NCBI GenBank assembly: GCA_046052125.1
Contig: JBJOMY010000001.1
Span: forward strand, 704,001-768,000
Direction: 5' to 3'
From: Cyanobacteriota bacterium
GTDB taxonomy: Bacteria > Cyanobacteriota > Cyanobacteriia > PCC-6307 > Cyanobiaceae
Length of the DNA stretch: 64,000 bases
Position numbers and translations under genes: made by a program. Below are positions 1-34,319 of the stretch, piece after piece. Position 1 is the stretch's first letter. Each line of letters starts with the position of its first letter. The notes beneath the pieces are model-generated. The model saw only the letters and a program-made list of their open reading frames with translations, made no database searches and was not told the origin of the DNA.

Positions 1-1655
1 TCTTCACGGTCTGCCTGGCGGAAGTACCCAGAGCCGCCTTTGACCTCGGTGCTGTACTTGCGGTCATAGGCCGCCTGCTTGTGTGGGAGTACATAGCGGA
101 GCGGCGCATAGGAAGCCAGGTTTAGTCGCCGGATCTCTCGATTAATGTCAGCAATGGGCGGGAAGGACGATGCACAATCCACATCAGCCTTGATGTTGAG
201 TGGCTTGAGCCGGTCAGGGAAGCGACCGGTTTCTGCAGTGCCGTAGTACTTCTCGATGTGTCGCCGGGATCGTGCAATTGTCAGATGGTCGAGCAGCATG
301 AAGTAGTCGAAGCCCAGCATCTCGACCAAGAGAGAAGGCGTCCGGTCGGTCTCTTCCAGATCAAGCCAGCGATTGAATTGCTTCTGTGCTAATCGCGTGG
401 TGGCATCGATGCTGTTGATTCCATGATCTACCAGTGCACGATCGTCACCTTCAGTAGCAAAGGAGATTTGATTGCGTAGATCAGCAAGACGATTATTGAC
501 CGGAGTGGCCGAGAGCATGAGGACTCGCGTCTTCACCCCTTCGTGGATAATCTTGCGCATCAAACGGTCGTAGCGGGTCTCGCCTTCAGCTTGGGGCGTC
601 TTCTTGTTTCTAAAGTTGTGTGATTCGTCAATGACCACGAGATCATAATTGCCCCAATTCACATGAGCAAGATCAATATCACCCGAGAGACCGCCCTCGC
701 GTGAGAGGTCCGTGTGGTTCAGAACGTCATAGTTAAAGCGATCTGCGGCAAGGATGTTCCGACGATCATTGGCTGTATAGAGGGTCCAATTGTCACGCAG
801 CCTCTTCGGGCAGAGCACTAGCACTCGATCGTTGCGTAGTTCCTGGTACTTGATGATGGCCAGGGCCTCAAATGTCTTACCAAGGCCAACGCTGTCAGCG
901 ATGATGCATCCACCGAAGCGGTTGAGTTTGTCAATGGCGCCGATCACGCCATCGCGCTGGAACTTATAGAGCTTGTTCCAGACGACAGTCTTGCGGATAC
1001 CCGTTGCCGAATTAACAATCTGCTCTTCATCAAGCTGGCCTTCATTCCCACTGAAAAGGCTTTGAAGAATCAGTGCATAAACAAGTCGTGGGTCGCAGTG
1101 GCTTGCTATCTGCTGCAGGCGCTCAAGCAGACTTGTCTTGACCGGCTGATCCTGTTCCAGTGAATTCCATTGATCCTTGAACCACTTATCAATCAACCGG
1201 GCCTCCTCGTTGTTTTCCGATGCCTGAATAAGGCTCAGTGGGTTCCCCGGGGCTGTCCCTAACCCATCACTACTCAAGGACAGCGAGCCAAGTAGCGCCT
1301 GAACTGGCTGGCCATCTGCTTCTCGAATCACGATGGCGCCTTGCGGCACCGTCGAAATGGCCTGCCGTAAGTGCACCTTCTGCGTTAGCCATTGCAGGAG
1401 TTGACCCGCTATCCAACGGATCTGGAGTCTGTTACGAGCAGGTCTGTCAGCAACAGAACCAAGCAACTCGAGATCTTCTACGTTCGCTGGAAGAATTAAC
1501 TGACAAGTGTCAATATCCTTTAGTTCAGAGAAGAGTTCAGCAAATGAAAATGCAGACAGGGTTGCACTCACAACGCCTAACTCCACTCCCCTCCTGAGCA
1601 GTGGACGTACATGGTCAACAACTCGATCGTTTCCCGTGTTACGGACGATTCTCAT
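1..1655 (-). CDS. SNF2-family helicase, N-terminal part (runs off the left edge); type associated with restriction-modification loci
   Basis: Not in the ORF track. Manual minus-strand translation from ATG at 1655 (MRIVRNTGNDRVVD...) gives Walker A 'IIADSVGLGKT', motif II 'VVIDESHNFRN' and motif III 'LSATPVNN'; the start codon and the codons at the window edge are in the same frame. Confidence 0.88.
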   Translation of the reverse strand, partial: MRIVRNTGNDRVVDHVRPLLRRGVELGVVSATLSAFSFAELFSELKDIDTCQLILPANVEDLELLGSVADRPARNRLQIRWIAGQLLQWLTQKVHLRQAISTVPQGAIVIREADGQPVQALLGSLSLSSDGLGTAPGNPLSLIQASENNEEARLIDKWFKDQWNSLEQDQPVKTSLLERLQQIASHCDPRLVYALILQSLFSGNEGQLDEEQIVNSATGIRKTVVWNKLYKFQRDGVIGAIDKLNRFGGCIIADSVGLGKTFEALAIIKYQELRNDRVLVLCPKRLRDNWTLYTANDRRNILAADRFNYDVLNHTDLSREGGLSGDIDLAHVNWGNYDLVVIDESHNFRNKKTPQAEGETRYDRLMRKIIHEGVKTRVLMLSATPVNNRLADLRNQISFATEGDDRALVDHGINSIDATTRLAQKQFNRWLDLEETDRTPSLLVEMLGFDYFMLLDHLTIARSRRHIEKYYGTAETGRFPDRLKPLNIKADVDCASSFPPIADINREIRRLNLASYAPLRYVLPHKQAAYDRKYSTEVKGGSGYFRQADRE

Positions 1656-1661
1656 TTCAGC

Positions 1662-2600
1662 TCATCCACGGAGTGCTTCGCGATGAACACTCAGGAAGTG
1701 TTCTTGTTCGCGGCTGAATGTCTTGATCTGGTTGGCTCCCTGAATCCCCCAGCAACGCAGGGCCTCACCAGCCGCCTCATGGCTCCAGATCAATTCACCG
1801 GTGGTATCGAAGCTGATCCAGTGGCGATCAAAGAGCTTGTCGATATGGGGCGAGAGCAGTAGCCCGTTGGCGCCACTGAGACGCTCCGCGTTATCGCAGT
1901 CCCGCCAAGGCTTGATATGGCTGGCCACAAGAAATTCCTGGCGTGCCAGGCCCGTCACACGGCAGCAAGGCTCGAGTTGCGCCACGCGTTGACGAAACAA
2001 TCCCTGGCCCAGGCGTGCTTTGGTCAGGGCCTCTCGCTCCGTTGTGTTGGGCAGCGCCTGCAATTGGTGCACGTCGTCCAGCAATGCAGCCGCCGCACTG
2101 CCCTCTTCTCCCAGAACCACCAGGTGCACCTGGACGGCACGATCAACGTGGTCCTCGATCAGCTTGAGCAGCAACCGGCCGAGTTCATCGCTGAGCCCTG
2201 CGAGATACACCCCTTGGTTACCGCGCCCCGTGCTGGTGCTGATCGGGCTATGGCGCTCTGGCAGGAGCGGCTGCAGAAGCTCAAAGAAGGTCTGCGGGAC
2301 CAGCGGACTGCTCAAGGGCTGCCAGTTGACGCGAACCAACCAGCCCTCCGCACCCCAGTAGTCCCCTGTCATGCCGAATTCGGGGGGCTTGGGTGCGGTG
2401 ACAGCGACTTGCTCGACCAGACCGATCTGGCTGATCTTGCCGTTGGCGTAGCTGAACACCACGTCTCCGCCCTGGCACTTGGCCAGGTTGTCGTAGGTGA
2501 CGTTGCGCCGCCCATCGGCATTGGCCTTGGGTGACCACACGTAGCCCCCCTCCGTCTCTTGCCGGTAGGTCTGCTTGTGGTTCACCCACCAGAAGGCCAC
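1662..2600 (-). CDS. HNH endonuclease with an N-terminal putative DNA-recognition domain (restriction-type)
   Basis: C-terminal 'ARLGQGLFR...CRVTG...ASHIKPW...NGLLLSPHIDKLFD' (HNH_2 type); likely GTG start at 2600 (VAFWWVNHKQT); stop is 7 nt upstream of the helicase start. Confidence 0.82.
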   Translation of the reverse strand: MAFWWVNHKQTYRQETEGGYVWSPKANADGRRNVTYDNLAKCQGGDVVFSYANGKISQIGLVEQVAVTAPKPPEFGMTGDYWGAEGWLVRVNWQPLSSPLVPQTFFELLQPLLPERHSPISTSTGRGNQGVYLAGLSDELGRLLLKLIEDHVDRAVQVHLVVLGEEGSAAAALLDDVHQLQALPNTTEREALTKARLGQGLFRQRVAQLEPCCRVTGLARQEFLVASHIKPWRDCDNAERLSGANGLLLSPHIDKLFDRHWISFDTTGELIWSHEAAGEALRCWGIQGANQIKTFSREQEHFLSVHREALRG

Positions 2601-2780
2601 GTCAGAAAGCCGTGCTCTTCTTGTTGTAGCTAGAGCAATCGGTGAGCGCCTCAGTAGCTCTGCTAGTCGGGAATCACGCTGCGCACGCCACCACGCAAGT
2701 GGCATGAAAGATCAGTTTGAGTTGCTCACCTTCAAGCCGGAGGCATTGCACCTGCAGCTTGTTGTGGGGGAGAGGCCGGT

Positions 2781-4222: not shown

Positions 4223-4891
4223 GTGACGGGAAACAAAGAGCTGGCTGGCCGACGAATGATTTCGGTCCCAGAGAGGAGTGAGCCGGAACGCATGAGTAGC
4301 GAGATTTCGCTCACACTTAGACCTGGAGAGCAACTACCGCTACCAACAGCAGAAGAAGGGCCGTCGTTTTTCTCGCTCAAGACTAAGCATGGAGTAGGAC
4401 GGCTTGCAACATTTTCCAAAATCAAGAGGTCCGATATAACCCTAGGATTTACTGGTGCATTGCATTGTGAGTGGCTCATTGCTCCCAGGGAAGCTCAACT
4501 ATCAATAGAGGCTCTTACGCCACTTCAAATGACAGTCATAGCTACAGACTCCTTTTGCAAGGAGCACGAACTAATAAGGTGCTGGCTCTGGGATCTTCAC
4601 CACGTCAGACATCCTGTGGGGGCAATGGCGCGACTAACCGCTTTGCTTCAGTTGATGATAATTCGTTTTGGAAACCGAATAAGCGAGGGATACACATTGC
4701 CCTTTTCTCTGTCCCACTCAAGACTTGCGGAGATAATTGGTGTCACAAGATCAACGGCAACGCGGCTTCTGAGCGTTCAGCGCCAACAAGGATGGGTCCA
4801 AGTGAACAGTCAGAATGGAATGTATGTCGTTACTCCATTAATGATGGATCTCACTCCAAAGTGGATGACTGAACTTGTTGATAATGCCTGA
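4223..4891 (+). CDS. Crp/Fnr family transcriptional regulator
   Basis: C-terminal Crp HTH 'LPFSLSHSRLAEIIGVTRSTATRLL'; resembles 6116..6718; lower GC; start may be 4292. Confidence 0.8.
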   Translation: MTGNKELAGRRMISVPERSEPERMSSEISLTLRPGEQLPLPTAEEGPSFFSLKTKHGVGRLATFSKIKRSDITLGFTGALHCEWLIAPREAQLSIEALTPLQMTVIATDSFCKEHELIRCWLWDLHHVRHPVGAMARLTALLQLMIIRFGNRISEGYTLPFSLSHSRLAEIIGVTRSTATRLLSVQRQQGWVQVNSQNGMYVVTPLMMDLTPKWMTELVDNA

Positions 4892-5228
4892 CAGGAAAAC
4901 CCTCTCAGCTGATCTGGACGGTACTCACTCCCGTCCGCAGCGGCATTTACCTCCCTTCCATTTGGAGCATTTGCTTTGCTTGCAACCTTTCTTTTTCTCC
5001 TGCTTCAGTCCTGAACTGGATTGAGGCAAATCGACACTCTGCTGGCCTGGGGTTTGGGGCATGGCAGCTGTTGGAAGAGGCGGGATCGGGCTTTGCGCCA
5101 CGTCCAGGCTAAGCGGTCTAAATCGCACAGGGGGGAGGCATTCTCAACAGGCACCTCCATGAGTAACTTTGGTGACAAGGCCCCATCGCCTCGGCGATCG
5201 GTCGATTCTCCTCCATAGAACCCCCGTC

Positions 5229-5807
5229 ATGCCCCTCTCTCCCGCGAGTTCAGCGCTCCAGGTGCAGACCGGCCCTGCCGGTCGCGCAATTGCTCAACCT
5301 ATGGAGGTGTCGCTGCTGGAGGCCCTGCAACATCACCTGACGATGGAGCGCCAAGCCAGTGCGACCTATTTCGCTATGGCGGTCTGGTTTGCCGAGCGTG
5401 AGCTCCGTGGGTTTGCTCACTTCTTCAAAGGCGAATCTGCCGATGAGCAACAACATGCAGCACGGTTCGCGGACTACCTGATTGCTAGAGGACAGACAGT
5501 CATTCTCGACGCCCTAGTAGCCCCCTACCAGCAATGGAGCTCTCCTGAGGAAATTTTGACGGCTTCATTCCGAATGGAAGCCGATGTGACAGCGTCACTA
5601 CAGCAGATGTACGGAATGGCTGAGCGTTGCTCGGACGTTCGAACCACCACGTTTCTTGATCCGATTGTTGACGGTCAGGTGACATCAGAAAACCGCATCG
5701 CGCATCTGATGGGGCGCGTTCGCTTTGCCCAACATCAGCCTGCTGCATTGCTTCTCATTGATGGAGAGCTAAGCGATGACAAGTGCGAACCTGCCTCCCT
5801 CAGCTGA
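5229..5807 (+). CDS. ftn: non-heme ferritin
   Basis: 'LTMERQASATY...ERELRGFAHFFKGESADEQQHA...EADVTASLQ...FLDPIVDGQ' with the cyanobacterial ferritin N-terminus 'TGPAGRAIAQPM'. Confidence 0.9.
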   Translation: MPLSPASSALQVQTGPAGRAIAQPMEVSLLEALQHHLTMERQASATYFAMAVWFAERELRGFAHFFKGESADEQQHAARFADYLIARGQTVILDALVAPYQQWSSPEEILTASFRMEADVTASLQQMYGMAERCSDVRTTTFLDPIVDGQVTSENRIAHLMGRVRFAQHQPAALLLIDGELSDDKCEPASLS

Positions 5808-6115: not shown

Positions 6116-6718
6116 TCAGAAAGCGATGGAGGAGCCTGCGATGAAAGCAGGCTCGAAACAAAGGATTGGCTCCGATTCAGAGACAATCACTTGACCATCA
6201 GTGCGTAGCCGGCTGAACAGCTTGGTGGTAGTCACTCTGGTGACACCAATCAACTCACCGATTCGTTCATGGCTGAGCTTGAAGGGCAACACACACCAGG
6301 CCCCAGACCTCTTCCCCATCCGCGTCACTAGTACGCCCAGTAAGGCCTGCAGACGCTCCTCCGCACGACCGAGATGGCGGATCCGTAGCAATTGCAGCGT
6401 CCACTCGTTCACCGGATCAAAGCCTTCAGCCGCAACGGGGATGGCATCGCTGCTGAACACCAAAGGCGTCAACGCTTCCACGCACACGCCCTCGCTGCAG
6501 AGGCGCTCCGGTCGCAACTGATCACCGGGCTGCAAGAACGCGATCGTCATGCCCTCGGTCTCCTCGCAGGGGCAATAGACCCGGGCCATCCCCTCGACAA
6601 CCTCAATACAGCAGGCATCCGGCAGTAAAGCGGGATTCAGCAGAACGCTGTGCCCGGCTGGGAGTCGGACTGTCCGAAAGGGCGCTGTGGGCAGAAAACG
6701 AAGGCTCATGAGGCCCAA
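6116..6718 (-). CDS. Crp/Fnr family transcriptional regulator (ferritin-associated type)
   Basis: 'VVEGMARVYCPCEETEGMTIAFLQPGD' beta-barrel and HTH 'LSHERIGELIGVTRVTTTKLFSRL'. Confidence 0.88.
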   Translation of the reverse strand: MGLMSLRFLPTAPFRTVRLPAGHSVLLNPALLPDACCIEVVEGMARVYCPCEETEGMTIAFLQPGDQLRPERLCSEGVCVEALTPLVFSSDAIPVAAEGFDPVNEWTLQLLRIRHLGRAEERLQALLGVLVTRMGKRSGAWCVLPFKLSHERIGELIGVTRVTTTKLFSRLRTDGQVIVSESEPILCFEPAFIAGSSIAF

Positions 6719-6730
6719 GATCCAGGGTTA

Positions 6731-7520: not shown

Positions 7521-7910
7521 TCAGGTTTGGAGCGGGTTGCGCGGTTCCAGGGGAAGAATGCGCACCCGTTGACGGCGCTCATCGGCAACGATCAGGGCAC
7601 CTTGATCCAGCTCATCGCTGTAGCTCTCGAGAAGATTGAGCACCAGCGAACCGATCACCTCAGGCAACACGTTCAAGCAGCGCACCTGCAGAACACTGGG
7701 GCCATCGGCACCAGAGAGGGCAAGCATGGTCCCGAAGTCGAGATCGTGGGTAAAGACCGCATAGCGATGGGCCAGGGCCCAGGCCATCAGGTCGCCATCC
7801 GGAGCGCGTGGATCGCCCACCTCGGACCAATGCACCGCCTCGTGACCGGCTGCTTGCAGGAGAGGGATCCACTCAGTCGACAAGTTCATATCGACCAGAA
7901 GCCGCGCCAT
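7521..7910 (-). CDS. DUF5615 family PIN-like toxin
   Basis: 'LLVDMNLS...DGDLMAWA...VFTHDLDFG'; 1-nt overlap with the upstream DUF433 gene. Confidence 0.85.
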   Translation of the reverse strand: MARLLVDMNLSTEWIPLLQAAGHEAVHWSEVGDPRAPDGDLMAWALAHRYAVFTHDLDFGTMLALSGADGPSVLQVRCLNVLPEVIGSLVLNLLESYSDELDQGALIVADERRQRVRILPLEPRNPLQT

Positions 7911-8137
7911 CAGGTCAGCACCAGCGCCTCCTCTCGCTCCTCGAGGCGCCAGGCTGCGTAAGCAAGGGCCTCATCGATATCGGGTGATTCCAGCAGTGGG
8001 TAAGCCGCCAGGATCCGCTCGCGGCTGACGCCACTGGCTACAAGGCCAACGATGGTGCCAACGCTGATCCGAAGCCCGCGGATACAGGGCTTGCCGCCCA
8101 TCACGGCTGGGTCGTGCGTGATTCGGGAGAAGGCCAT
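7910..8137 (-). CDS. DUF433 family antitoxin
   Basis: 'RITHDPAVMGGKPCIRGLRISV...YPLLESPDIDEALAYAA'. Confidence 0.9.
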   Translation of the reverse strand: MAFSRITHDPAVMGGKPCIRGLRISVGTIVGLVASGVSRERILAAYPLLESPDIDEALAYAAWRLEEREEALVLT

Positions 8138-8164: not shown

Positions 8165-9040
8165 TCAAGCCGTAGCGGATTCTGCGAGGAAGCTCTCAAT
8201 CCAGCGCTGGTGCCGGCTGGTGGTGATCAGCCCCGCCAAGGATGGTTGAGCCTCAGGCACCTGGAAGGCAGCGCGGAAGCCTTTGGAGAAGGCCTCGAGC
8301 CGAGCGGGGGCGAGGGCCTTGATTCGGTCCTGCAGCGCAGTGATGGCAGTGGGCGGAAGGGGAGCATCAGCCATCTCAGGCGATGGGCTTTTGGTTGCAG
8401 CTGCCACCGGCTTGGCATCGCTCACCTGGCGCTGCTGCTTGTCGTAGAGCGCCAGGCCAAAGGGATTGCCAAAGGTCATCAACGCCCGTTTGGTGGCATC
8501 GGTTTCAGCTTCCTTGAGCGCGGATTCATGGGCCAGGCCCTTGTCGGCATCAATGCCATGGCCGGCCCCTGAGCCCTCACGGATCAAGGTGCGGTGGCCA
8601 GCGGTAACGGTGATGCGCACGCGGGCGGTGTAAGTGACACCCCAGCCGCTTTTGCGATCCCGCCCAATCGGGCGTTCGTGTTCGGTCACGCAGCGGCTGA
8701 TCAGGGTGCAGCGCTCCCAGCCATCAAACCCAAAGATGCGGTTGGCCTCTGCGATCACCTGCCACCCCTCGAGGTAGCTCACCCGGCTGCGGCCCTGCTC
8801 CCGCTGCCGCACATTGGCCCGATCCAACGGCGCCGACAGCAACGCCACCTGCCTCTCACTAAAGCCGGGGCCATGGGCCCCCTCGAGGTGGGCGGTTGCA
8901 GGTGCGGGCGATGGTTGAGCAGCGTCTTGGCTGAGGGTTTCGCGCAGCAGCTGGAGCGTTGTGGGTGGCCGGCTCGTGGCATTGCGGCGCACAGGCGCCG
9001 AGTGGGTTGTGGTGGTGTTGGCTGTGGATGTGATGGCCAT
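8165..9040 (-). CDS. Rad52/Rad22 family single-strand annealing protein (Sak-like)
   Basis: 'SYLEGWQVIAEANRIFGFDGW' and 'ALKEAETDATKRALMTFGNPFGLALYDK' are Rad52 signatures. Confidence 0.92.
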   Translation of the reverse strand: MAITSTANTTTTHSAPVRRNATSRPPTTLQLLRETLSQDAAQPSPAPATAHLEGAHGPGFSERQVALLSAPLDRANVRQREQGRSRVSYLEGWQVIAEANRIFGFDGWERCTLISRCVTEHERPIGRDRKSGWGVTYTARVRITVTAGHRTLIREGSGAGHGIDADKGLAHESALKEAETDATKRALMTFGNPFGLALYDKQQRQVSDAKPVAAATKSPSPEMADAPLPPTAITALQDRIKALAPARLEAFSKGFRAAFQVPEAQPSLAGLITTSRHQRWIESFLAESATA

Positions 9041-24704: not shown

Positions 24705-24935
24705 ATGGATCTGCTTGATCGCATCACCGTCGACCCAGCCATCCGGTTTGGGAAGCCCTGCGTGCGGGGGACCCGACTCACGGTTGGTGATGTTCTGGGC
24801 ACCCTGGCTGCCGGCTGCAGTGAGACCGAGCTGCTTGAGGACTTCCCACAGCTCAGCCATGAGGATGTGTTGGCTTGCATGGCCTTTGCCGCTGAACGTG
24901 AACGCACCTTGATGGTGTCCACGGGGGTGGGTTGA
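24705..24935 (+). CDS. DUF433 family antitoxin
   Basis: 'RITVDPAIRFGKPCVRGTRLTV...DFPQLSHEDVLACMAFAA'. Confidence 0.9.
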   Translation: MDLLDRITVDPAIRFGKPCVRGTRLTVGDVLGTLAAGCSETELLEDFPQLSHEDVLACMAFAAERERTLMVSTGVG

Positions 24936-25282
24936 GCCTCAAGCTGCTTCTCGACGAGAACCTTTCTGAGCGTTTGCTTCCGCTGCTCAGCGAAGCGTTT
25001 CCAGATTCGAGCCACATCCGCTTACTCGGTCTCGGCGGTGTCGATGACCGCTCCGTCTGGGAGGAGGCCCGTGCTGGTGGCTATCTGCTGCTGACCAAGG
25101 ACGACGATTTCCTTGGAATGAGCCTGAGCCTCGGCTGGCCACCAAAGGTGGTCTGTCTGGCCATTGGCAATGCCTCGAATGCAGCCACAGCCCGGCTGAT
25201 CCTTTCAAGGCTGGAGGAGATTCGCTACTTCAACGACCATCCAGAAGCCGGCTTCCTCCTCCTCAAGCCAGCCTCTGGATGA
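24932..25282 (+). CDS. DUF5615 family PIN-like toxin
   Basis: 'KLLLDENLS...DDRSVWEEA...LLTKDDDF...PPKVV'; 4-nt overlap with the DUF433 gene. Confidence 0.88.
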   Translation: MSLKLLLDENLSERLLPLLSEAFPDSSHIRLLGLGGVDDRSVWEEARAGGYLLLTKDDDFLGMSLSLGWPPKVVCLAIGNASNAATARLILSRLEEIRYFNDHPEAGFLLLKPASG

Positions 25283-25315: not shown

Positions 25316-25771
25316 TCAGGCCGCCGCTCCTGAACGGTGCACTGCTGCTGAAACGGAAACCAACGCGTTCCGCCGCGGCAGATGGCAACAGGCACCGGAG
25401 CCAACCAACACATCACTGAGCCGCTTGGCCGCCAGGAGTGCATCGAGCTCGATGAGTTGCACCGCCTCGCGCTGACGCGGAAGCCAACCGGCGAGCAAGC
25501 CGCGATCACCCAGGGGCAGGGGTTTGGGTAGCTCGAGTCGTTGGCCGAGGAACGGCAACCAGCGCTCAACGCCATCGGCCTCACGCCACGGTTCAAAGCT
25601 GGCCACCTCCACCAGCTGCTTGAGCGTGGACTCGCCGTAGCTGAGGGACGTCAAATACATCACGTCCTTGAGCTGTTCAGCCTCAAGGGCAAGGGGCATC
25701 CAGAAGCCGCGATCGGCGGCGTTCTCGATCGCATCACGGTGGTGATGGGTGAGCAGAACCTTGGTGGTCAT
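25316..25771 (-). CDS. hypothetical protein
   Basis: 151-aa ORF with ATG start and protein-like composition. Confidence 0.6.
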   Translation of the reverse strand: MTTKVLLTHHHRDAIENAADRGFWMPLALEAEQLKDVMYLTSLSYGESTLKQLVEVASFEPWREADGVERWLPFLGQRLELPKPLPLGDRGLLAGWLPRQREAVQLIELDALLAAKRLSDVLVGSGACCHLPRRNALVSVSAAVHRSGAAA

Positions 25772-25885: not shown

Positions 25886-26254
25886 GGCTGTCTCTGGTGG
25901 AACAACACCAGCCAGTCGGGATCGGTGATTCCACGCACAGCGGGGGGCCAGCGAGCAGCCATTCCGTCAGCCTTTCTTCCAGCCAGATCGCCCCAACCGC
26001 AGCCCCAGCACCACCGCAACGGGGGCCCTGCCCCCCTCGGAACCCTATGGGGCGTTGCTTGTTGTTCATGCCTGTTGAGTTCCGAGGTGCCGCCATTGGC
26101 GGGGTGATGGCACTGGTGGTGCAGGCGTGTGGGCCGACACCGCTCGGGGCGGTGGTGCGTGGGGCGTTGGTGCAGCCCATGCATGCCCGCCAATCCATTG
26201 CAGCGCAAGGAGTTCAAGGCAAGGCCAATAGCCTCCCGCACCTGCAAACCACGC

Positions 26255-26695
26255 ATGCCCAAACGCTGTCTGCGCCGGCCGATGACCAGTGAGCAGCGGG
26301 CGTTTGCCTGCAAGCACCTGGGCCTGGCGCATCAACAGGCGCACCGCTTTGCGCGCCGTTGGTCGATGGCCGTCGACGACCTGATTGGCCCCGCCTACGA
26401 GGGTCTTTGTAAGGGTGCGATTGGCTTTGATCCCACGCTGGGGCATCGCCCCTCCAGCTATCTCGTCCCGAAGGTGAAAGGCGAGTTGCTGCACTACCTG
26501 CGCGACACGGGCTTCTCGCTGCGCATCAGCCACCGGCTGCGGGAGCTGTGGATCAAAGCGCGCCGATACGTCGCCCAGGGCCTCAGCGATCAGCAGATCG
26601 CCGATCAACTCCAAGTGCCCCTGGAGCGCTGGCTGGATTGTCGCCGCGCCTGCGGACAACGGCCGATTCCGCTGCATGAACTCCAGCGCGATTAA
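26255..26695 (+). CDS. Short sigma-70 family protein (SigF/SigB-like regions 2-3, no region 4)
   Basis: 'DDLIGPAYEGLCKGAIGFDPTLGHRPSSYLVPKVKGELLHYLRD' and 'SDQQIADQLQV'; start at 26255 or 26282. Confidence 0.8.
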   Translation: MPKRCLRRPMTSEQRAFACKHLGLAHQQAHRFARRWSMAVDDLIGPAYEGLCKGAIGFDPTLGHRPSSYLVPKVKGELLHYLRDTGFSLRISHRLRELWIKARRYVAQGLSDQQIADQLQVPLERWLDCRRACGQRPIPLHELQRD

Positions 26696-26784: not shown

Positions 26785-27957
26785 ATGGGTTCAGCCAAAC
26801 ACCGCCACCAACCAGCCCGTCATCTCCCTGGACGGGGAGCACAACCGGCCAGCAACACTGATCAAGACCGCGAACTGCTGCAGTTCAACGTGCGCCTGGC
26901 CAAGGCACGTCAGGCCCAGGCCGACACCAACCGGATTGAGCGCAAGGCCTTCCGCGAACACGCCCGCATCGAGAACGCCGTCACCGCCTACACCCGCGAG
27001 CTGTGCTCGCTTCTGGATGAACGGGGCTTTACGCAAGGCGTGACGCTCTCCCGCATCCCGGACGGCGGGGATGCAGTGCTGATCGTGCAACTGAGCGATC
27101 TGCACTTCAACGAGCGGGTTGAACTGCCCTCCAACCGCTACGACTTCACCGTGGCCGCGCAGCGTCTGGCCAAGCTCGCCCAACGCGTCAAGCAACTGGG
27201 CCAGAGCTATGGCGCCCGCAAGGTGGTGGTGGCCTGCCTGGGGGATTTCCTCAACAGCGACCGGCGCCTCGATGAGCTGCTCTCCAACAGCACCAACCGT
27301 TCCAGAGCAACCCTGCTTGCCGTCGACATCCTGCGGGCGTTTCTGCTCGATCTACGCGAGCAGTTCGAGCTCGAGGTCTATGGCATCACCGGCAATGAAA
27401 GCCGCGTGAACAAAGAGCTGGGCTGGAGCGATGAGCTCGCCACCGACAGCTACGACCTGATGATCTACGAGATCCTCAAGCGCGGCTTTGCCGGCACAGA
27501 AGGGATCAACTTCTGCGGCTTCCGGGCCAATGAGCTCTTGTTTGAGGTGATGGGCCGCACCTTCCTCTGCCTGCACGGCCACCAGATCGGCGCGAACGTG
27601 CAGAAATCGGTGCAAGAGATCACCGGTAAGTACGCCGCCCAAGGCATCACGGTGGACTACACCCTGTTCGGCCACCTACACGCCAGCGCCATCGGCGACT
27701 ACCACGCCCGCAATGCCTCGCTGGTGGGCAGCAACGCCTACTCAGAAGCAGGGCTGAACTTCTGCAGCAAGGCGGCGCAGAACATCCACATCGTGTCTGG
27801 CTCCAAGGGCACGGGCGCTATCGATGGCGTGAAGGTTGACCTCCAGGACATCAGCGGGATCGAGCCCTACCCCTTTGCCGCCGAATGGGAGGCCTACTGC
27901 CCCAAGAGCGAGCGCAAGCTCCACACCCCCTCTGTCGTTTACCAGGTTGTTGTCTGA
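26785..27957 (+). CDS. Calcineurin-like metallophosphoesterase
   Basis: 'LSDLH', 'LGDF', 'GNE', 'LHGH' and 'GHLH' motifs; coiled-coil N-terminus. Confidence 0.85.
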   Translation: MGSAKHRHQPARHLPGRGAQPASNTDQDRELLQFNVRLAKARQAQADTNRIERKAFREHARIENAVTAYTRELCSLLDERGFTQGVTLSRIPDGGDAVLIVQLSDLHFNERVELPSNRYDFTVAAQRLAKLAQRVKQLGQSYGARKVVVACLGDFLNSDRRLDELLSNSTNRSRATLLAVDILRAFLLDLREQFELEVYGITGNESRVNKELGWSDELATDSYDLMIYEILKRGFAGTEGINFCGFRANELLFEVMGRTFLCLHGHQIGANVQKSVQEITGKYAAQGITVDYTLFGHLHASAIGDYHARNASLVGSNAYSEAGLNFCSKAAQNIHIVSGSKGTGAIDGVKVDLQDISGIEPYPFAAEWEAYCPKSERKLHTPSVVYQVVV

Positions 27958-28337
27958 TGACTGTTTCCACTCCTTCCCGCACCTGCGCCTGCGCTAGGGG
28001 CGCCAGCGGCAACACGGCGCTTGAGCTGCAGAGCGCGCTGCTCCAGGCGATCACTGGGCTCACGCAACTGGTGAGTCAGCTCAGCCAACAGTTCCCGATC
28101 ACCCAGCCGACTGCTCCTGCAGCAGAGCCCTGGATGGAGGAGCGCCCCAGCCAGGCAACCAAGCCGACATGCGTGCCCAACCTCTCAACCCTCTGGGATG
28201 AGCTGTCGGTGGTGGAACTGCGCTCGCTCTTGCGCAGCTATCCGATTGATCGCTCCTCCCTGCCAGCCCCGATCGAACTGCTGCGCCGCAGCGAGCTCAT
28301 CGAAGCCCTCAACCAAATCCAAGCCCTCGGTGCTTAA
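27957..28337 (+). CDS. hypothetical protein
   Basis: ATG overlaps the TGA of the upstream gene (TGATG). Confidence 0.6.
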   Translation: MTVSTPSRTCACARGASGNTALELQSALLQAITGLTQLVSQLSQQFPITQPTAPAAEPWMEERPSQATKPTCVPNLSTLWDELSVVELRSLLRSYPIDRSSLPAPIELLRRSELIEALNQIQALGA

Positions 28338-28390: not shown

Positions 28391-28867
28391 ATGACCACAA
28401 CCCTCACCACCGCCAATCCCGCCGCTCTCGGCGAACCCATCCCCGGATCACCGGAAGCGCTGTTGCTCTTGGCCAACGCGGGAATACTGCCCGCCAGTGC
28501 CGGCGCCGACGATCCCCGCTTCTCAGCCGACGCCATCACCACCTGCGTCACCCGACTGCTCGAGGTGAAACAGCAGAAGGAACTCCTGGCCAATGAACAG
28601 AAGGAACTGAACGAACAGCTGCGCCTGGCGCACTTACGCGGTGACCTGCTCACCCTGTTGCCAGCCGGCAAGGACGGCAACGGCTATCAGATCACCCCGG
28701 ATCTCGTGCTCAACCGCCGCCCCGGCCGCAAGCAGTGGAGCTACTCGATCGACTGCAAAGAGATCGAATGCCAGCTCAAGGCACGCCAGAGCTATGAGCA
28801 GCAGAGCGGCCTCGCCAGCTACAGCCTCGGTGCAGCGTTCTGGGAGGTGCGGGCGAGCAAGGGCTGA
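28391..28867 (+). CDS. hypothetical (phage-like) protein
   Basis: 158-aa ORF with coiled-coil segment and consistent codon usage, followed by a terminator. Confidence 0.7.
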   Translation: MTTTLTTANPAALGEPIPGSPEALLLLANAGILPASAGADDPRFSADAITTCVTRLLEVKQQKELLANEQKELNEQLRLAHLRGDLLTLLPAGKDGNGYQITPDLVLNRRPGRKQWSYSIDCKEIECQLKARQSYEQQSGLASYSLGAAFWEVRASKG

Positions 28868-29440: not shown

Positions 29441-30529
29441 TCAGCTGGAGATGCGGAAGCCCTGCTTGAGCCATAGCGACACATACACCAAGGACACCAA
29501 CACCGGCACCTCGATCAACGGGCCAATCACACCGGCCAGGGCCTGTTGGGAACTGATTCCCCAGATGCTGATACAGACAGCAATCGCCAGCTCAAAGTTA
29601 TTGCCAGCTGCGGTGAAAGCCAAAGCGGATGTGCGCGTGTAATCCAAGCCGCTTCTCTTGCCTAGGGCAAATGCGGTGCTCCACATGATCACGAAGTAGA
29701 GAAGCAGAGGCAAGGCCACCCGCAAAACCTGGCCTGGATTCGCAGTGATCGCCTTGCCCTGGAGAGCAAACATCACCACGATAGTGAAGAGCAAGCCGTA
29801 TAAAGCGAAGGGAGCAATCCTGGGAATGAATCGCTCTTCGTACCAGCGGATGCCTTTGGAACGTACGCCAATCTGACGGGTCAGGAACCCAGCCACCAGA
29901 GGAATCCCAAGAAAGACCAGTACGGCTTTTGCAATCTCCCAGAAGGAGAAGCTCAGAACTTGGCTTTCAAGCCCAAGCCAGCCAGGAAGCACCTGCAGAT
30001 AGAAGGTGCCCAACAAGGCATAAATAAGGACCTGCAGAATGGAATTAATCGCAACCAGCACTGCAGCCACTTCACGGTTTCCCTTGGCCAGATCAATCCA
30101 GATCAGCACCATCGCAATGCAAGGCGCAATACCAATCAGGATCAATCCAGTCCGAAAGGCAGGTTGATCTGGAAGGAACAACCAAGCCAAAGCGAACATC
30201 AACAGTGGCCCCAACCCCCAAACCAACCCAAGGGCCAGCTTCAGCAGGCGGGGATCACGGGCAGCGTGGCCCAGTTCGCCGTAGCGCACTTTGGCCAGCA
30301 CTGGATACATCATCAACAACAAACCGATGGCGATCGGCAAAGAGGTGTGATCCACCTGCACCGCAGTGAGCGCAGCCTGTATGCCAGGCACCAGCCGTCC
30401 GAGCAGGAGACCACTGGCCATCGCCAACAGGATCCAGAGCGGTAGGAGCCGATCGAGCACAGGCAGCGAGGCCAACACAGTGGCCTCTTTGGACGACGGC
30501 TGCGCTGAGTGGAGAGCGTCGTCTCTCAT
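29441..30529 (-). CDS. acr3: ACR3 family arsenite efflux transporter
   Basis: 'LDRLLPLWI', 'MMYPVLAKV', 'GIAPCIAMVLIW', 'AGNNFELAIAV', 'IGPLIEVPVL'. Confidence 0.93.
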   Translation of the reverse strand: MRDDALHSAQPSSKEATVLASLPVLDRLLPLWILLAMASGLLLGRLVPGIQAALTAVQVDHTSLPIAIGLLLMMYPVLAKVRYGELGHAARDPRLLKLALGLVWGLGPLLMFALAWLFLPDQPAFRTGLILIGIAPCIAMVLIWIDLAKGNREVAAVLVAINSILQVLIYALLGTFYLQVLPGWLGLESQVLSFSFWEIAKAVLVFLGIPLVAGFLTRQIGVRSKGIRWYEERFIPRIAPFALYGLLFTIVVMFALQGKAITANPGQVLRVALPLLLYFVIMWSTAFALGKRSGLDYTRTSALAFTAAGNNFELAIAVCISIWGISSQQALAGVIGPLIEVPVLVSLVYVSLWLKQGFRISS

Positions 30530-31239
30530 GGCATGTGGGGCGCTGCGATTTGTAGTCGGGCCTCCGTTCCGTCGGGGCCTAGGCAGCAAGGCAGATGCCC
30601 TGTCTTCACCCAGATCGTGCAACCCGGTTCACTGCAAGGTCGATGCACACTGCCCGGTGGATTGCGCAGCCAGCTGCCAGCGGGATAGGTGCCGTGCTCG
30701 TCCTGGAACACACCAGACAACACATAAATCTCCTCGCCGCTTGGATGGCTGTGGGGCTGAAACACCGTGCCAGGCGCCCAGCGCACCAGCGCCACGTGCT
30801 CCGAGCCGTAGCCGTGTAGGGGCATGACCTCGAGCCCATTCACAAGCCCAGGAACCCAAACACCGGAGCTGGTATCGATCACCAGCCGCTGCTGATCTCC
30901 CGGGTGCATCTGATACAGCTTCACCAGAATCGTGCAGCCAGCCTTGCTGAACGGGGTATGGCTCGATCCCACCGGATTACGCAGGTAGCTGCCGGCGGGG
31001 TAGTCCCCGTGCTCATCCGAGAACGTGCCCTCGAGAACAAGGATTTCTTCTCCACCGGGATGGCCATGGGGCTCGAAGTGACTGCCGGGGGCGTAGCGCA
31101 CGATTGAGGTGGCACGGGCCACCTCTTCCCCGCGGCGATCCAGAAGGCGGCGTTCCACGCCAGCCATTGGTGAGGGCTGCCAGGCCAAAGCATGGGTGTC
31201 GAGCACCACGCGTTCGCTGAGGTCGGCATGCAGGTCCAT
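30526..31239 (-). CDS. ChrR-like double cupin protein
   Basis: 'WQPSPMAGVERRLLDR...ATSIVRYAPGS.F..H.HPGGEE' with a second cupin repeat. Confidence 0.88.
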   Translation of the reverse strand: MDLHADLSERVVLDTHALAWQPSPMAGVERRLLDRRGEEVARATSIVRYAPGSHFEPHGHPGGEEILVLEGTFSDEHGDYPAGSYLRNPVGSSHTPFSKAGCTILVKLYQMHPGDQQRLVIDTSSGVWVPGLVNGLEVMPLHGYGSEHVALVRWAPGTVFQPHSHPSGEEIYVLSGVFQDEHGTYPAGSWLRNPPGSVHRPCSEPGCTIWVKTGHLPCCLGPDGTEARLQIAAPHMP

Positions 31240-31253: not shown

Positions 31254-31532
31254 TCAGCTCACTTCCGGCGCCCAGCCCCGTTGGCGGACCATGTCATCCG
31301 TCCAGCCCTGACAGCGCCTGACCAGATGCTCACCCTGGGCAATCAGTCCGTGGTGAAGCTGGCAGGTGAGCAAAGGGATGCAGTCAGCACCGGGGTGGTA
31401 CCTGAACCAATGGCAGGTCATGCAGACCTTGCGGCTGCGACTGGGACGCAGCACGTCCTCATCCAGATAGGGCCAGGCTTCGCAGTCGCTGCCTGCAGCC
31501 ACTGAGGTGGCCCGGATTCGAGAAGCAGTCAT
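31254..31532 (-). CDS. small Cys/His-rich hypothetical protein
   Basis: 'VCMTCHWFRY...LLTCQLHHGLI...RCQGW'; ATG at 31532. Confidence 0.7.
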   Translation of the reverse strand: MTASRIRATSVAAGSDCEAWPYLDEDVLRPSRSRKVCMTCHWFRYHPGADCIPLLTCQLHHGLIAQGEHLVRRCQGWTDDMVRQRGWAPEVS

Positions 31533-31545
31533 CAACCCCTCTATG

Positions 31546-31559
31546 CATACACTTGTACT
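31546..31559 (-). promoter_or_regulatory. LexA-like box
   Basis: Minus strand AGTACAAGTGTATG, one mismatch to RGTACNNNDGTWCB, 14 nt upstream of ATG 31532. Confidence 0.55.
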
Positions 31560-31621
31560 AGCAGGGATTGGCTGGGTTGGCGCGGGTCGTGCTGATCGGT
31601 TCCGGATTCCTCCAACAAAGG

Positions 31622-31652
31622 AGCCCCGGGCCATGGGCGCCCGGGGCTTTTT
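31622..31652 (+). terminator. Intrinsic terminator-like hairpin
   Basis: agccccggg-ccatgggcg-cccggggct followed by a T tract. Confidence 0.65.
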
Positions 31653-31755
31653 GAGCCAGTGGGTTGTTGGTCTCCCACCGCCTCTTGGTCATGGCTCAGG
31701 TCTGCGGCGGAGCGCAAGGCCTGTCGGAACTCTTTGGGGCCTTTCCCCATGTCCT

Positions 31756-32079
31756 TTGTTCAACTCTTTTCCGCGCTTCTTCTCCTGGCTGCGCTCGTTG
31801 CTGCAGCGACCTCAGACCTGCTCCAGCAGCGAGCTCGGGCCCTTTGAGCTCGACCACGCCTTTGCTGCCTTTGAGCAGGGTGATTGGTTGGCAGAACTGG
31901 ACCTCCTGCAACTGGGTGTTGCCCTGCAGCGCGGCGCCATCGCCCGCGGCGGCTACGACGGCCGCTCCTTTGACCTGATGGTCGCCATCGCCGATGTCCT
32001 GCAAAGCGATCACGGCTGGAGCTTTGAGCAGTCCGATGCCTGGCTCGAGCGCATGGGGCTCTGGGAGGAGGAGTTCTGA
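31756..32079 (+). CDS. hypothetical protein (start uncertain)
   Basis: C-terminal part of ORF 31507..32079 is protein-like; TTG start assumed. Confidence 0.5.
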   Translation: MFNSFPRFFSWLRSLLQRPQTCSSSELGPFELDHAFAAFEQGDWLAELDLLQLGVALQRGAIARGGYDGRSFDLMVAIADVLQSDHGWSFEQSDAWLERMGLWEEEF

Positions 32080-32149: not shown

Positions 32150-32347
32150 ATGAGTGAACACCTCTGGCTGACCACTGCCGAGCTCTGCTCCCATCTGGCT
32201 ATCAGCCGCTCCACGCTGTTTGCCATTCGCCGCTCGGGCCTGCTCAAGGACGGGCGGCATCTGGTGGCCAAGAACCCAACCAGCGCTCGCTCGCACCTGC
32301 TCTGGCACCGTCAGCGCTGTGAGTTGGCCCTCGGGAGGATCAGCTGA
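32150..32347 (+). CDS. Excisionase-like HTH (AlpA/MerR-like) protein
   Basis: 'WLTTAELCSHLAISRSTLFAIRRSG'; convergent with the integrase. Confidence 0.75.
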   Translation: MSEHLWLTTAELCSHLAISRSTLFAIRRSGLLKDGRHLVAKNPTSARSHLLWHRQRCELALGRIS

Positions 32348-32565
32348 TGGCTTCCATCGGCAGCTCCAACAGCGCCTGGGTCACCACCAGCGAGCTCTGC
32401 GCTGCCCTTGCCATCAGCCGCTCCAAGCTCTGCCGTCTGCAACAGCGCAAGGTGTTCCGCCAAGGGCTGCACTGGGTGCGCAAAAACCCAACCGCGGCAC
32501 GTTCCGATCAGCTCTGGAGCCTGGAGGCGTGTCGTTCACTGCTTGAGAATCAACACCGTTTCTAG
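32347..32565 (+). CDS. Second excisionase-like HTH protein (paralogue)
   Basis: 'WVTTSELCAALAISRSKLCRL...KNPTAARS..LW' aligns with the upstream gene; TGATG coupling. Confidence 0.75.
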   Translation: MASIGSSNSAWVTTSELCAALAISRSKLCRLQQRKVFRQGLHWVRKNPTAARSDQLWSLEACRSLLENQHRF

Positions 32566-32646: not shown

Positions 32647-34014
32647 CTAGGCACCCGCCCCGGGTTCAGGGAGCATCCGACGCGCCAGGGAGGCCTTGGT
32701 TTGCTCCTCCGTGATCTCGCTCAGGTACGTGCGCCGGTGTACCTCCGGGCTATGGCCCATCACCGCTGCCACATCCGCGTAGTTCCAGGTTGTGGTTTCC
32801 CGAGCCCGAATCGCGTAGGCGTGGCGCAGGTCATAAGGCACGCAGCGCTCCTTGCGTTTCTGCGCTTTCTTCTTGCCCTGGGCTGGCGCTGTTTCTACCC
32901 AGGCATACAGCTTGGTCTTGAGTTCAAACTCCGCCTTGGCATCGGAGCTGCGCAACTTGTGGCAGCACACCGCGCCCAGGCGTTCGTTGTTATCGCAGCG
33001 CTTCACGAGGTCACGCTCGGGATCAAAGGGCTGGCCCTCCTCATTCACGAACTTGGGCACGTAGCGGCTGCGCAGCTGCTCGAGCCGTTGCTCCCCATTC
33101 ACACCGCCCAGCTGGTAGCGCTCCACCCATTCGGCAGGCAGCGGTAGTGCGACGCGGAAACCAGTCTTCGTGACCTTGATGTGGCGGGCCGCCACGCTGA
33201 TGCTCACCATCCCCTGCTCATCGGGGAGTTCAGCGATATGCCACACCTCATGGGGCCTGAGCCCATAGGTGGCCACCATCGCGAACACCCACCCCCAGAG
33301 CGGGTCCTCGTCCATCACCTGATCCAGCCACTCCTGAATTGCTGCGGTGCTCGGAATACGGCGCCTGGATTCACCCGCCGAAAGGAGCGCCACCTTCTTC
33401 TTATTGACCATTCCCTTGAGCTCCTCGCTCAGGCTCTCCGGTGCAATCGCCCCGTAGCCGGCCCGCCGGAGCAACGACACCACCTCCCGCTTCTGGCGGA
33501 ACCCCTGGCGGTGGGTGGCCATCGGCAGCAGCGTGGCCGTTGCGTCCTCCAGCCGTGCCTTGAGGCTTTCGCTGGTATGCAACGCAAAGCGGCGCACATC
33601 CTCCTCAGTAGCCGGGCGATCCGCCGGCAGCAGACAGAAGTAGCCCTTGCCTTTGAACGGACCCACCAGGTTCATGTTCACCCCCTGGGCTCGCTGGAAC
33701 GCCACCACGGCGGCGCAGATGGCAGGCCAGCAAGGGTTGTTTGCGTTGGCGGCGTCGAGGTCTTCCTGGCCGTCGGGGAGAACAGCGGGCTTGCCACTGC
33801 GGGTCGCCTCGATCAGCAGGTCCTGGAGGTTTTCGATCGCCTCTGGGTCAGCGGCTGCATAGCCCTTGATGGTGTGCTCGCGGGTTTTGCCACCCTCGCC
33901 GAGCTGGTACACCGTGATCCATGGGCTGCGGCGGTGCTCCCGCAGCCGGTATCGGGCGCCGAAGGCGCGCAGCACGGCATTACAGCGCTGCATGGGGCTC
34001 TGAATCGTGGCCAT
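32647..34014 (-). CDS. Tyrosine recombinase/integrase
   Basis: Catalytic motifs 'TYGLRPHE', 'TKTG', 'YDLRHAYAIR', 'MGHSPEVHRRTY'; adjacent to the tRNA. Confidence 0.92.
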   Translation of the reverse strand: MATIQSPMQRCNAVLRAFGARYRLREHRRSPWITVYQLGEGGKTREHTIKGYAAADPEAIENLQDLLIEATRSGKPAVLPDGQEDLDAANANNPCWPAICAAVVAFQRAQGVNMNLVGPFKGKGYFCLLPADRPATEEDVRRFALHTSESLKARLEDATATLLPMATHRQGFRQKREVVSLLRRAGYGAIAPESLSEELKGMVNKKKVALLSAGESRRRIPSTAAIQEWLDQVMDEDPLWGWVFAMVATYGLRPHEVWHIAELPDEQGMVSISVAARHIKVTKTGFRVALPLPAEWVERYQLGGVNGEQRLEQLRSRYVPKFVNEEGQPFDPERDLVKRCDNNERLGAVCCHKLRSSDAKAEFELKTKLYAWVETAPAQGKKKAQKRKERCVPYDLRHAYAIRARETTTWNYADVAAVMGHSPEVHRRTYLSEITEEQTKASLARRMLPEPGAGA

Positions 34015-34247
34015 GGGGAACGCATCTCTGGATGGAGTGTTCCCACCGATCCGGACCCAGAACCCCAACCAATCTCACGCGGTGAGACGAGCCGGATTCC
34101 TTGGGACTTGTCCCAAGGAAATGACACAACTACGGTTTTCGGCGATCTCCCCCGGACTCATTCCGCCCGGGGGAAACCGCCTTCTGAAACCCTGAGAACC
34201 CTTGCGTTGCAGGGTAAAACCCTTGCAGTCCAAGCGATCTCAAAACA

Positions 34248-34319
34248 TGGGTCGTCTGAGATTCGAACTCAGGACCAATCGGTTAAAAGCCGAGTGCTCT
34301 ACCGCTGAGCTAACGACCC
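34248..34319 (-). tRNA. tRNA-Lys(TTT)
   Basis: Reverse complement GGGTCGTTAGCTCAGCGGTAGAGCACTCGGCTTTTAACCGATTGGTCCTGAGTTCGAATCTCAGACGACCCA folds as a cloverleaf with anticodon TTT. Confidence 0.97.

Follow-up and report, generated by a model that had tools for sequence, protein, structure and literature searches.

The stretch of 64,000 nucleotides analysed here (the window, C1:704001-768000) contains all but the left 12.2 kb of A1, an integrative element of 46,476 bp that is inserted at the tRNA-Lys(UUU) gene of a freshwater picocyanobacterium, bounded by copies of the 3' half of that gene, and equipped with replication, recombination, and transcription genes of its own. We consider it probable (roughly 0.6) that A1 belongs to a lineage-restricted family of virion-less integrative elements, here called A-type, which derive from, or share a gene pool with, temperate cyanosiphoviruses resembling P-SS2 and which work like a large tycheposon or phage satellite. 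A first-pass annotation, made from the window alone, had described a self-replicating cargo platform that makes no particles, has a conserved backbone, and stands apart from tycheposons; the platform and the backbone are upheld below, and the separation from tycheposons does not stand on the ground given for it.

The source assembly comprises 2.64 Mb in 10 contigs, with a GC content of 64-66%. Genes were called with a home-made caller, whose codon-usage score was trained on long open reading frames (ORFs) of the same genome; gene starts are consequently approximate, and weak or foreign genes can be missed. The calls were scanned with Pfam, PHROGs, PADLOC, and NCBIfam; for A1, Pfam was run on 54 ORFs (48 within the element, the rest in its flank) and PHROGs on 30 A1 ORFs. 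Coordinates without a prefix are window positions.

Boundaries, integrase, and backbone of A1

The tRNA-Lys(UUU) gene is the sole tRNA gene in the window and the only tRNA-Lys gene that ARAGORN finds in the whole assembly. The attachment (att) core at the right end of A1, attR, consists of the 44 nt at its 3' end (34248-34291; C1:738248-738291). Looking upstream for a second copy of the tRNA 3' end, as the first-pass annotation had proposed, yielded two on the same strand, one at C1:691728-691771 with 1 mismatch and an exact one at C1:619348-619391. The nearer copy and tRNA-Lys place A1 at C1:691772-738247, or window position -12228 to 34247, so that the 34-kb stretch 1..34319 previously taken for the element is too short: the repeats give 46.5 kb, starting 12.2 kb left of the window. 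The farther copy bounds an adjoining prophage, B1, described below; to its left (left of C1:619348) lies the remnant of a third element, an integrase N-terminus that contains a stop codon and is 75% identical to the A1 integrase.

The backbone features inside the window are as follows.

8165..9040 (-): Rad52-family annealase (Pfam, PHROGs, NCBIfam)
9125..9778 (-): Gp157/Gam-like protein (Pfam, PHROGs, NCBIfam)
9821..10309 (-): SLOG (YAcAr) protein (Pfam, PHROGs, NCBIfam)
14216..15940 (-): DnaG primase (Pfam, PHROGs, NCBIfam), 38% identical to P-SS2 gp109
15931..17631 (-): DnaB-family helicase (Pfam, PHROGs, NCBIfam), 34% identical to P-SS2 gp108
17667..18734 (-): 355-aa winged-helix protein ("Rep"), 26% identical to P-SS2 gp107
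22881..23828 (+): sigma-70 factor, 315 aa (Sigma70_r2; phrog_351, E 3e-29), 29% identical to P-SS2 gp113 rpoS
23847..24695 (+): 282-aa protein with a sigma region-4/LuxR-like C terminus (phrog_3282, E 7e-8)
25316..25771 (-): orf151, a 151-aa ORF conserved in relatives and sister copies
26129..26695 (+): short sigma-70 protein, 188 aa, region 2, SigF-like (Sigma70_r2; phrog_36098, E 4e-31; NCBIfam SigF subfamily)
26785..27957 (+): SbcD/Mre11-like exonuclease (phrog_284, E 1e-52)
27885..28337 and 28391..28867 (+): orf150 and orf158, conserved backbone ORFs
31507..32079 (+): orf190, a 190-aa ORF kept in relatives and sister copies, with no Pfam, PHROG, or NCBIfam match
32150..32347 and 32347..32565 (+): two xis-like helix-turn-helix genes (weak matches: HTH_17, E 1e-3; phrog_2907, E 9e-4)
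32647..34068 (-): divergent tyrosine integrase, 473 aa (AlphaFold2 model and Foldseek)
34248..34319 (-): tRNA-Lys(UUU) (ARAGORN)

The integrase gene lies 180 bp from tRNA-Lys, reads inward into the element, and adjoins the xis pair; its true start is likely some 18 codons downstream of the annotated one, because homologues are about 455 aa long. The protein has no sequence match in Pfam (E up to 0.01; PF00589 included), PHROGs, NCBIfam, or the PDB with its solved integrases; a PDB sequence search by phmmer and with a 12-sequence profile returned chance matches only. Its AlphaFold2 model, with a predicted local distance difference test score (pLDDT) of 78.8, gave XerA, Cre, Tn1549 Int, TelA, and lambda Int as the top Foldseek matches in the PDB (E 3e-5 to 1e-3, probability 1.00), and the top of the list held tyrosine recombinases only. 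Five residues, R271, K301, R415, H439, and Y448, are invariant in an alignment of 12 homologues, and in our reading of that alignment they probably represent the catalytic residues of a tyrosine recombinase; the first His position of the R-K-H-R-H/W-Y motif is occupied by Y412. Together, the modelled fold and the invariant residues identify the protein as a predicted divergent tyrosine recombinase, in keeping with the tyrosine integrase that had been placed at the tRNA-Lys 3' end from the window alone. It is 27% identical to P-SS2 gp101 over its full length.

None of the 120 homologues listed from a collection of 5.8 billion proteins carries a precomputed Pfam domain (0/120); some bear the name integrase at JGI, and at NCBI their name is hypothetical protein. 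A family that Pfam misses and that is annotated as hypothetical leaves islands of this kind easily overlooked by automated screens. Across genomes of the family, full-length matches to the integrase profile are confined to the larger ones, and most genomes, those of 1.6-1.9 Mb included, give partial matches only (E ∼1e-13), to an ORF of about 390-450 aa. Among the matches listed in the integrase search are records of Synechococcus sp. HJ21-Hayes and Cyanobium sp. FGCU52, possibly strains in culture and candidate carriers of the backbone. The twin xis-like proteins are paralogues (48% identical) and are 41% and 37% identical to P-SS2 gp100, which adjoins the phage int gene; the pair beside the integrase is thus as first described, and its support from excisionase families is marginal.

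The replication genes form a module in which DnaB and DnaG were identified by family scans. The label Rep, by contrast, had been given by position; the 355-aa protein resembles P-SS2 gp107, and its AlphaFold2 model is poor (pLDDT 48.6, usable for residues 8-98 only), showing an N-terminal winged helix with generic VIA-align matches (Z ∼8) that are not specific. Both members of the Rad52/Gp157 operon reported earlier were found by Pfam; with the SLOG gene they form a module that is kept in the sister copies and is found in the prophages B1 and B2 too. Both sigma-70 proteins were likewise recovered, together with a third protein that has a sigma region-4-like part. Structures similar to orf158 and orf151 in the ESM Atlas belong to clusters without names, viral ones among them. 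Two studies (X6 and X21) yielded metagenome contigs in which position 26159 is joined to 32083 with 8 other letters between; such a joint would leave out everything from the exonuclease to orf190, and with a short side of 25 letters it may reflect a repeat or another strain.

The 12.2 kb to the left of the window hold an MNT/HepT pair, a HicB-like gene, an endolysin, and an AbrB-like regulator (Pfam, PHROGs, PADLOC), as well as an SNase-Excalibur nuclease, a type III restriction-modification system, and DUF4391 (Pfam, PADLOC). The endolysin has two domains (phrog_10051, E 4e-67) and is a homologue of P-SS2 gp098.

Comparison with the P-SS2 record NC_013021 gave homologues for eight A1 proteins: gp098 lysozyme, gp100 (twice), gp101 int, gp107, gp108 DnaB, gp109 primase, and gp113 sigma. 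The phage proteins that best match A1 DnaG are those of the cyanosiphoviruses P-SS2 (38.6%) and S-CBS2 (34.6%). Judged from these homologies, A1 is the putative lysogeny, replication, and transcription part of a P-SS2-like phage, with no portal, capsid, tape-measure, or fibre genes.

Sister copies and adjoining prophages

The A-type backbone occurs three times in this genome, in A1 at tRNA-Lys, A2 at tRNA-Met, and A3 at tRNA-Pro. A2 adjoins tRNA-Met(CAU) (C1:182263-182336) and has an integrase 30% identical to that of A1; no tRNA-Met repeat of at least 16 nt that would mark its left end was found in C1:100-200 kb. A3 occupies C3:14591-47917, between 43-bp copies of the tRNA-Pro(UGG) 3' half, and carries a different integrase-like gene at its tRNA-distal end. 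Between the three copies, the exonuclease, orf150, and orf158 show 70-92% identity. No internal stops interrupt the 11 backbone genes compared, for which dS ranges from 0.2 to 1.1 and dN/dS from 0.06 to 0.38; by gene, dN/dS is about 0.1 for the exonuclease, 0.06-0.11 for orf158, and 0.08-0.38 for the replication operon. These values indicate old copies that have been maintained separately, rather than recent duplicates or decaying pseudogenes.

Of the 22 genus genomes with a completeness of at least 90%, 11 contain element-type DnaB, at 16 places in all; family-wide, it is present in 9 of 151 sampled genomes, belonging to 3 of 33 genera. Eleven copies in eight genomes have a common gene order, some of them without genes at one end: endolysin, AbrB, (cargo), Rad52/Gp157/SLOG, and DnaG-DnaB-gp107-like in the first half, then sigma, sigma-like, orf151, sigma, exonuclease, orf150, orf158, orf190, xis, and int. 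The syntenic backbone that the first-pass annotation had proposed to seek in other genomes is therefore present. None of the 11 copies examined has a match to the B1 head genes by tblastn (E cut-offs 1e-4 to 1e-8), and PHROGs detected no head, packaging, or tail protein among 145 ORFs in 58 kb of genome G012 and 73 kb of G027; one marginal PHROG category match (phrog_8608, E 9e-4) occurs in B1 only. A tree of DnaB from 11 of the 16 copies is discordant with the att site, grouping A1 (Lys) with G007b (Pro) and A2 (Met) with G017b (Lys); integration and replication modules have thus been exchanged.

Prophages with virion genes, here called B-type, stand in tandem with two of these elements. B1 (C1:619392-691727, 72.3 kb) is att-bounded and adjoins A1. 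Its integrase is 36% identical to that of A1 and has a xis-like gene beside it; its virion genes include a large terminase (phrog_38, E 3e-75), portal, scaffold, and major capsid (phrog_212, E 5e-54). It also encodes a 922-aa primase-helicase and two sigma factors; its recombination genes specify RecT, a protein like exonuclease VIII, SSB, and a pair of Rad52 and Gp157. Further genes are those of a complete DISARM system, a GmrSD-like gene, SoFic, and a resistance-nodulation-division (RND) efflux/two-component cassette. The first-pass annotation had named structural phage genes just left of the window as a finding that would make A1 an ordinary prophage; such genes are indeed there, but in a separate att-bounded unit with its own integrase. 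B2 (C3:47961-113226; L059:9918-20000 and beyond), a second B-type prophage with head genes 49-61% identical to those of B1, follows A3 in an array at tRNA-Pro(UGG) on C3 that contains three 43-bp copies of the tRNA 3' half. A-type and B-type integrases at a common tRNA are of the same subfamily, with 36% identity at tRNA-Lys and 32% at tRNA-Pro.

The B1 capsid protein has its best phage matches in P-SS2 (41.3%) and S-CBS2. Of the 22 genus genomes, 8 contain the B-type capsid gene, which also turns up at 96-100% identity in 9 IMG/VR contigs; temperate siphoviruses that appear recent are themselves unusual among picocyanobacteria. Stretches of B1 genes (C1:661-691.6 kb) correspond to L004:9014-14905, L005:461-14903, and L006:381-7252. 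Just outside the left end of both tandem arrays lie autotransporter genes (L001:10236-13331, minus strand, and L057:10409-13237, plus strand; 1032 and 943 aa, Autotransporter beta-domain). Three TTGCGCACAT-type repeats with 11-bp spacing stand beside the first tRNA-Pro att copy (L057:14675-14714), and a 22-nt stretch with two of them stands beside the second (C3:47832-47853). The repeats are common to A-type and B-type elements and are probably integrase arm sites.

We considered whether A1 and B1 might be halves of one composite prophage of ∼119 kb, in which B1 supplies the virion and A1 supplies DnaB/DnaG and sigma factors, with joint excision from the outer att sites. The recurrence of A-type/B-type tandems at tRNA-Lys and at tRNA-Pro on C3 fits such an arrangement, as does the fact that both partners best match P-SS2 (DnaG 38.6%, capsid 41.3%), a phage of 107.5 kb. 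A1 and B1 are, however, set apart by an att copy between them and by a second integrase, complete and accompanied by xis, and B1 has its own 922-aa primase-helicase. Moreover, of the 22 genomes, 7 have A-type elements but no B-type capsid gene and 4 show the reverse (both are present in 4 and neither in 7), and no A-type DnaB, DnaG, integrase, or exonuclease was found in nine IMG/VR stretches of 12-21 kb around the B-type capsid gene. The genome counts indicate that A-type elements are not part of B-type prophages and have no visible dependence on a resident one, and we regard the composite as very improbable.

A further proposal is that A-type elements are a new class of large (33-48 kb) satellites of B-type P-SS2/S-CBS2-like prophages, sharing integrase type and att site with their helpers, residing in tandem with them, and ferrying defence and metal-resistance cassettes between freshwater picocyanobacteria; at present this seems doubtful. 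DNA common to the two types is limited to Rad52/Gp157, AbrB, SNase, and a few small-gene segments, none of it near the B-type terminase.

Cargo, absent functions, and a possible mode of life

The remaining genes of A1 within the window are mostly cargo.

C1:702458-705655 (-), crossing the window start: SNF2-family helicase, 1065 aa (Pfam, PADLOC)
1662..2705 (-): HNH endonuclease (Pfam, PADLOC)
4223..4891 (+) and 6116..6718 (-): two Crp/Fnr-like regulators flanking the ferritin-like gene (Pfam, NCBIfam)
5169..5807 (+): ferritin-like gene (Pfam, NCBIfam)
7521..8137 (-): DUF5615/DUF433 toxin-antitoxin pair (Pfam)
11379..12128 (-): DUF429 protein, PADLOC candidate PDC-S44 (Pfam, PADLOC)
12472..12702 (-): duplicated 3' fragment of dnaG
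12952..14133 (-): 393-aa ORF in an inserted cassette between that fragment and dnaG (GC 0.557 in its 1-kb bin; no match in Pfam, PHROGs, NCBIfam, or PADLOC)
19873..22680 (-): P-type ATPase, type IIA, Ca2+-like, 935 aa (Pfam, NCBIfam)
24705..25282 (+): DUF433/DUF5615 (PIN-like) toxin-antitoxin pair (Pfam)
29441..30622 (-): ACR3 arsenite efflux protein (TIGR00832, 412.9 bits against a cut-off of 282.8)
30526..31239 (-): ChrR-like double cupin (Cupin_7)

All of the cargo reported earlier, namely toxin-antitoxin loci and iron, arsenite, cation-transport, and defence genes, was thus found by Pfam, PADLOC, and NCBIfam, and Pfam adds one orphan DUF433 to the two pairs. The proposed swapping of cargo cassettes has some support, in that the cargo differs between copies: slots are fixed and their contents vary, with RND efflux genes in a slot in G007 and G008. 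Neither the P-type ATPase nor ACR3 has a match in any of six compared relatives (0/6); the cupin has one in three of the six, outside the slot it occupies in A1, and the pair at 24705-25282 has one in G027 only and recurs inside the backbone in G008. The genome holds a paralogue of the ATPase at C3:168638-171367. Positions 1..2705 are the right end of a defence cassette whose DUF4391 and type III Mod and Res genes lie left of the window. A paralogous copy of this cassette (SNF2, DUF4391, type III Mod, Res) is present at C1:290912-299849, with proteins 82-87% identical to those of A1 except for Mod, at 54% only; the sequences suggest exchange between islands, and the divergence of Mod would fit a changed specificity. 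In the tRNA-Lys island of G012, a 453-aa ORF between backbone modules (L033:15807-17165, minus strand) matches photosystem II D1 (phrog_182, E 6e-182) and, as called, has an N-terminal extension of ∼97 aa.

The first-pass annotation had recognised no capsid, terminase, tail, relaxase, or type IV secretion system (T4SS) gene, and no such family appeared in the Pfam scan of 54 ORFs or the PHROGs scan of 30 A1 ORFs; the att-bounded unit contains no head/tail/terminase module of the kind expected of a P-SS2-like prophage. An integrative conjugative or mobilizable element would also show tRNA integration, cargo, and replication genes, all of which A1 has, but the 54 ORFs yielded no relaxase, coupling protein, or T4SS family in Pfam, and this is the least likely of the explanations that we weighed. 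A crude hydropathy scan of small A1 ORFs for a holin gave no transmembrane segment. DNA damage had been put forward as the inducing signal. With a LexA-box consensus that we take to be RGTACNNNDGTWCB, the window contains a lone match, inside dnaG (shuffled sequences gave a mean of 0.14, and 12 of 100 had at least one), and Pfam recognised no S24 or CI-type repressor in A1, so that this part of the earlier description has no support from the sequence.

The strongest competitor is that A1 is a defective, domesticated P-SS2-like prophage, immobile after deletion of its head, tail, and packaging genes and kept since its cargo (defence, metal, toxin-antitoxin) and some phage genes benefit the host. 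We judge this possible, though clearly less probable than the interpretation of A1 as a member of a virion-less family. The P-SS2 ancestry of A1 itself is as expected of such a relic. In 2009, Sullivan et al. (PMC2784084) noted islands in Synechococcus RS9917 whose genes for a lysozyme, an integrase, a sigma factor, and RAD52 resemble those of P-SS2, and took them for a relic prophage; a similar island in WH8016 was interpreted likewise (10.1101/325100). Decay is evident in the third remnant left of C1:619348, with its stop codon in the integrase fragment, and in the G027 array, with its transposases and broken integrase pieces. On the other hand, the 11 copies examined, at three different tRNAs, have the same virion-less architecture; ORFs are intact, dN/dS lies between 0.06 and 0.38 at dS values reaching 1.1, and independent decay would not stop repeatedly at one gene set; integration modules have been swapped between backbones; and the att repeats are exact or have 1 mismatch.

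Several further results weigh against a mobile, satellite-like A1. Purifying selection would fit host-domesticated genes too. A-type and B-type elements show no association in the 22 genomes. No packaging gene (terS, capsid, scaffold) was found in A1 by Pfam or PHROGs, where conserved unassigned ORFs remain; no pac- or cos-like DNA common to A1 and B1 or B2 was found; and the scans that gave no S24 or CI-type repressor recognised no other repressor. Neither an excised form nor an empty site nor a copy-number signal was observed: assembled metagenome contigs from four runs of four studies, fragmented and of mixed strains, were compared with window 19000-38000 and gave short-sided joints only, none bridging an empty site. 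Among four genomes without a close integrase (G023, G036, G024, and G028), none has a clean attB at tRNA-Lys; each has unrelated island material and a sigma remnant to the left of it. Searches of IMG/VR for an A1-type backbone, with integrase, DnaB (single sequence and alignment), and exonuclease queries, returned one 33% fragment only; as IMG/VR holds predicted viruses and is scanned by short peptide patterns, this says little about particles. Finally, A1 is 2-4 times larger than the tycheposons or phage-inducible chromosomal islands (PICIs) described so far.

Should A1 nevertheless be a working member of a virion-less family, its anatomy, its conservation, and the closest known systems suggest how it might operate. 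The divergent tyrosine recombinase would act on the 44-bp core, and since this is identical to the 3' half of tRNA-Lys(UUU), integration would rebuild the tRNA gene. Aided by one of the Xis-like proteins or by both, the integrase would release a circle of 46.5 kb, which the gp107-like winged-helix protein, the DnaB-type helicase, and DnaG could replicate using host polymerase. The two sigma-70 proteins and the sigma region-4-like protein may redirect host RNA polymerase to element promoters, and Rad52, the Gam-like protein, and the SbcD-like exonuclease may drive recombination, including the exchange of modules and cargo with sister elements. Because A1 combines an endolysin with no recognised particle or conjugation gene, its exit would depend either on the capsids of a helper phage and lysis or on vesicles.

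Comparison with known systems

To our knowledge, prophages and classical mobile elements are generally regarded as scarce in picocyanobacteria, a gap that tycheposons have been proposed to fill in Prochlorococcus. The present freshwater genome of 2.64 Mb contains four att-bounded elements (A1, A3, B1, and B2; ∼217 kb) and a third A-type copy. The A-type family connects a full P-SS2-like siphovirus with a cargo carrier that has no particle genes but retains those for replication, recombination, sigma factors, and lysis. If A-type elements move, they would offer a tractable system for the spread of cargo and defence genes with no capsid or conjugation genes, and for the existence of cyanophage satellites.

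A1 shares with P-SS2 a homologous int, a gene in the xis position, the gp107-DnaB-primase operon, a sigma factor, a lysozyme, and a tRNA-linked attachment site. The genome of P-SS2, however, measures 107.5 kb and includes genes for portal, capsid, tape-measure, and fibre proteins, none of which A1 has; Rad52/Gp157 in A1 stands against bet/exo in P-SS2, and amino acid identity between the two is 26-41% only. We found no description of the A-type family in the accessible parts of the literature on tycheposons, Vulcanococcus prophages, and picocyanobacterial integrases and genomic islands. The suggestion that the family is possibly undescribed nevertheless needs qualifying, given its P-SS2-like backbone and the RS9917 islands mentioned above.

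PICIs and other phage satellites, as the tycheposon preprint presents them, resemble A1 in having a site-specific integrase and replication genes of their own, in lacking a full set of virion genes, in residing next to prophages of the helper type, and in carrying defence cargo. They differ in that A1 has no recognised terS, capsid-remodelling or otherwise packaging-redirecting gene, or helper-sensing repressor gene, and is 3-4 times larger; no helper is known for A1, and it shows no association with a resident B-type prophage.

The closest parallel is with tycheposons. These had been set apart from A1 on the premise that they characteristically use large serine recombinases, which the tycheposon preprint contradicts: 910 of 937 elements have tyrosine recombinases, and the rest large serine recombinases (Hackl et al., 10.1101/2020.12.28.424599). 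The same text takes as defining features a tyrosine integrase that is site-specific and for the most part lineage-specific, a common set of hallmark genes, a small replication module, and cargo, and reports tandem arrays at tRNAs and induction by mitomycin C. As described there, tycheposons of Prochlorococcus resemble A1 in several respects: they occupy the 3' portion of a tRNA gene, are marked by partial-tRNA repeats, and at times form tandem arrays; one end carries a tyrosine integrase that faces inward and is accompanied by xis; they encode helicases, DnaB-type ones included, and primases (DnaB and DnaG in A1); and they carry niche and defence cargo, the cargo-carrying type being free of capsid and conjugation genes. 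In tycheposons and in the A-type family alike, integrases sort with the target tRNA, while replication modules are shared. Size separates them, A-type elements measuring 33-48 kb and tycheposons roughly 10-20 kb. So does the A-type backbone of ∼25 kb, which contains three sigma or sigma-like proteins, Rad52, a Gam-like protein, SLOG, an SbcD-like exonuclease, and an endolysin; the words sigma and lysozyme do not occur in the available text of the preprint. The host of A1 is a freshwater picocyanobacterium of the Vulcanococcus/Cyanobium type, as opposed to Prochlorococcus, and no full-length relative of the A1 integrase was found in the 1.6-1.9 Mb genomes of the family. Every structural feature of tycheposons that could be assessed here was found in A1, which departs from them in size, in its larger phage-like backbone, and in its host. 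A1 looks like a large, phage-derived relative of the tycheposon or satellite kind, not a wholly new kind of element.

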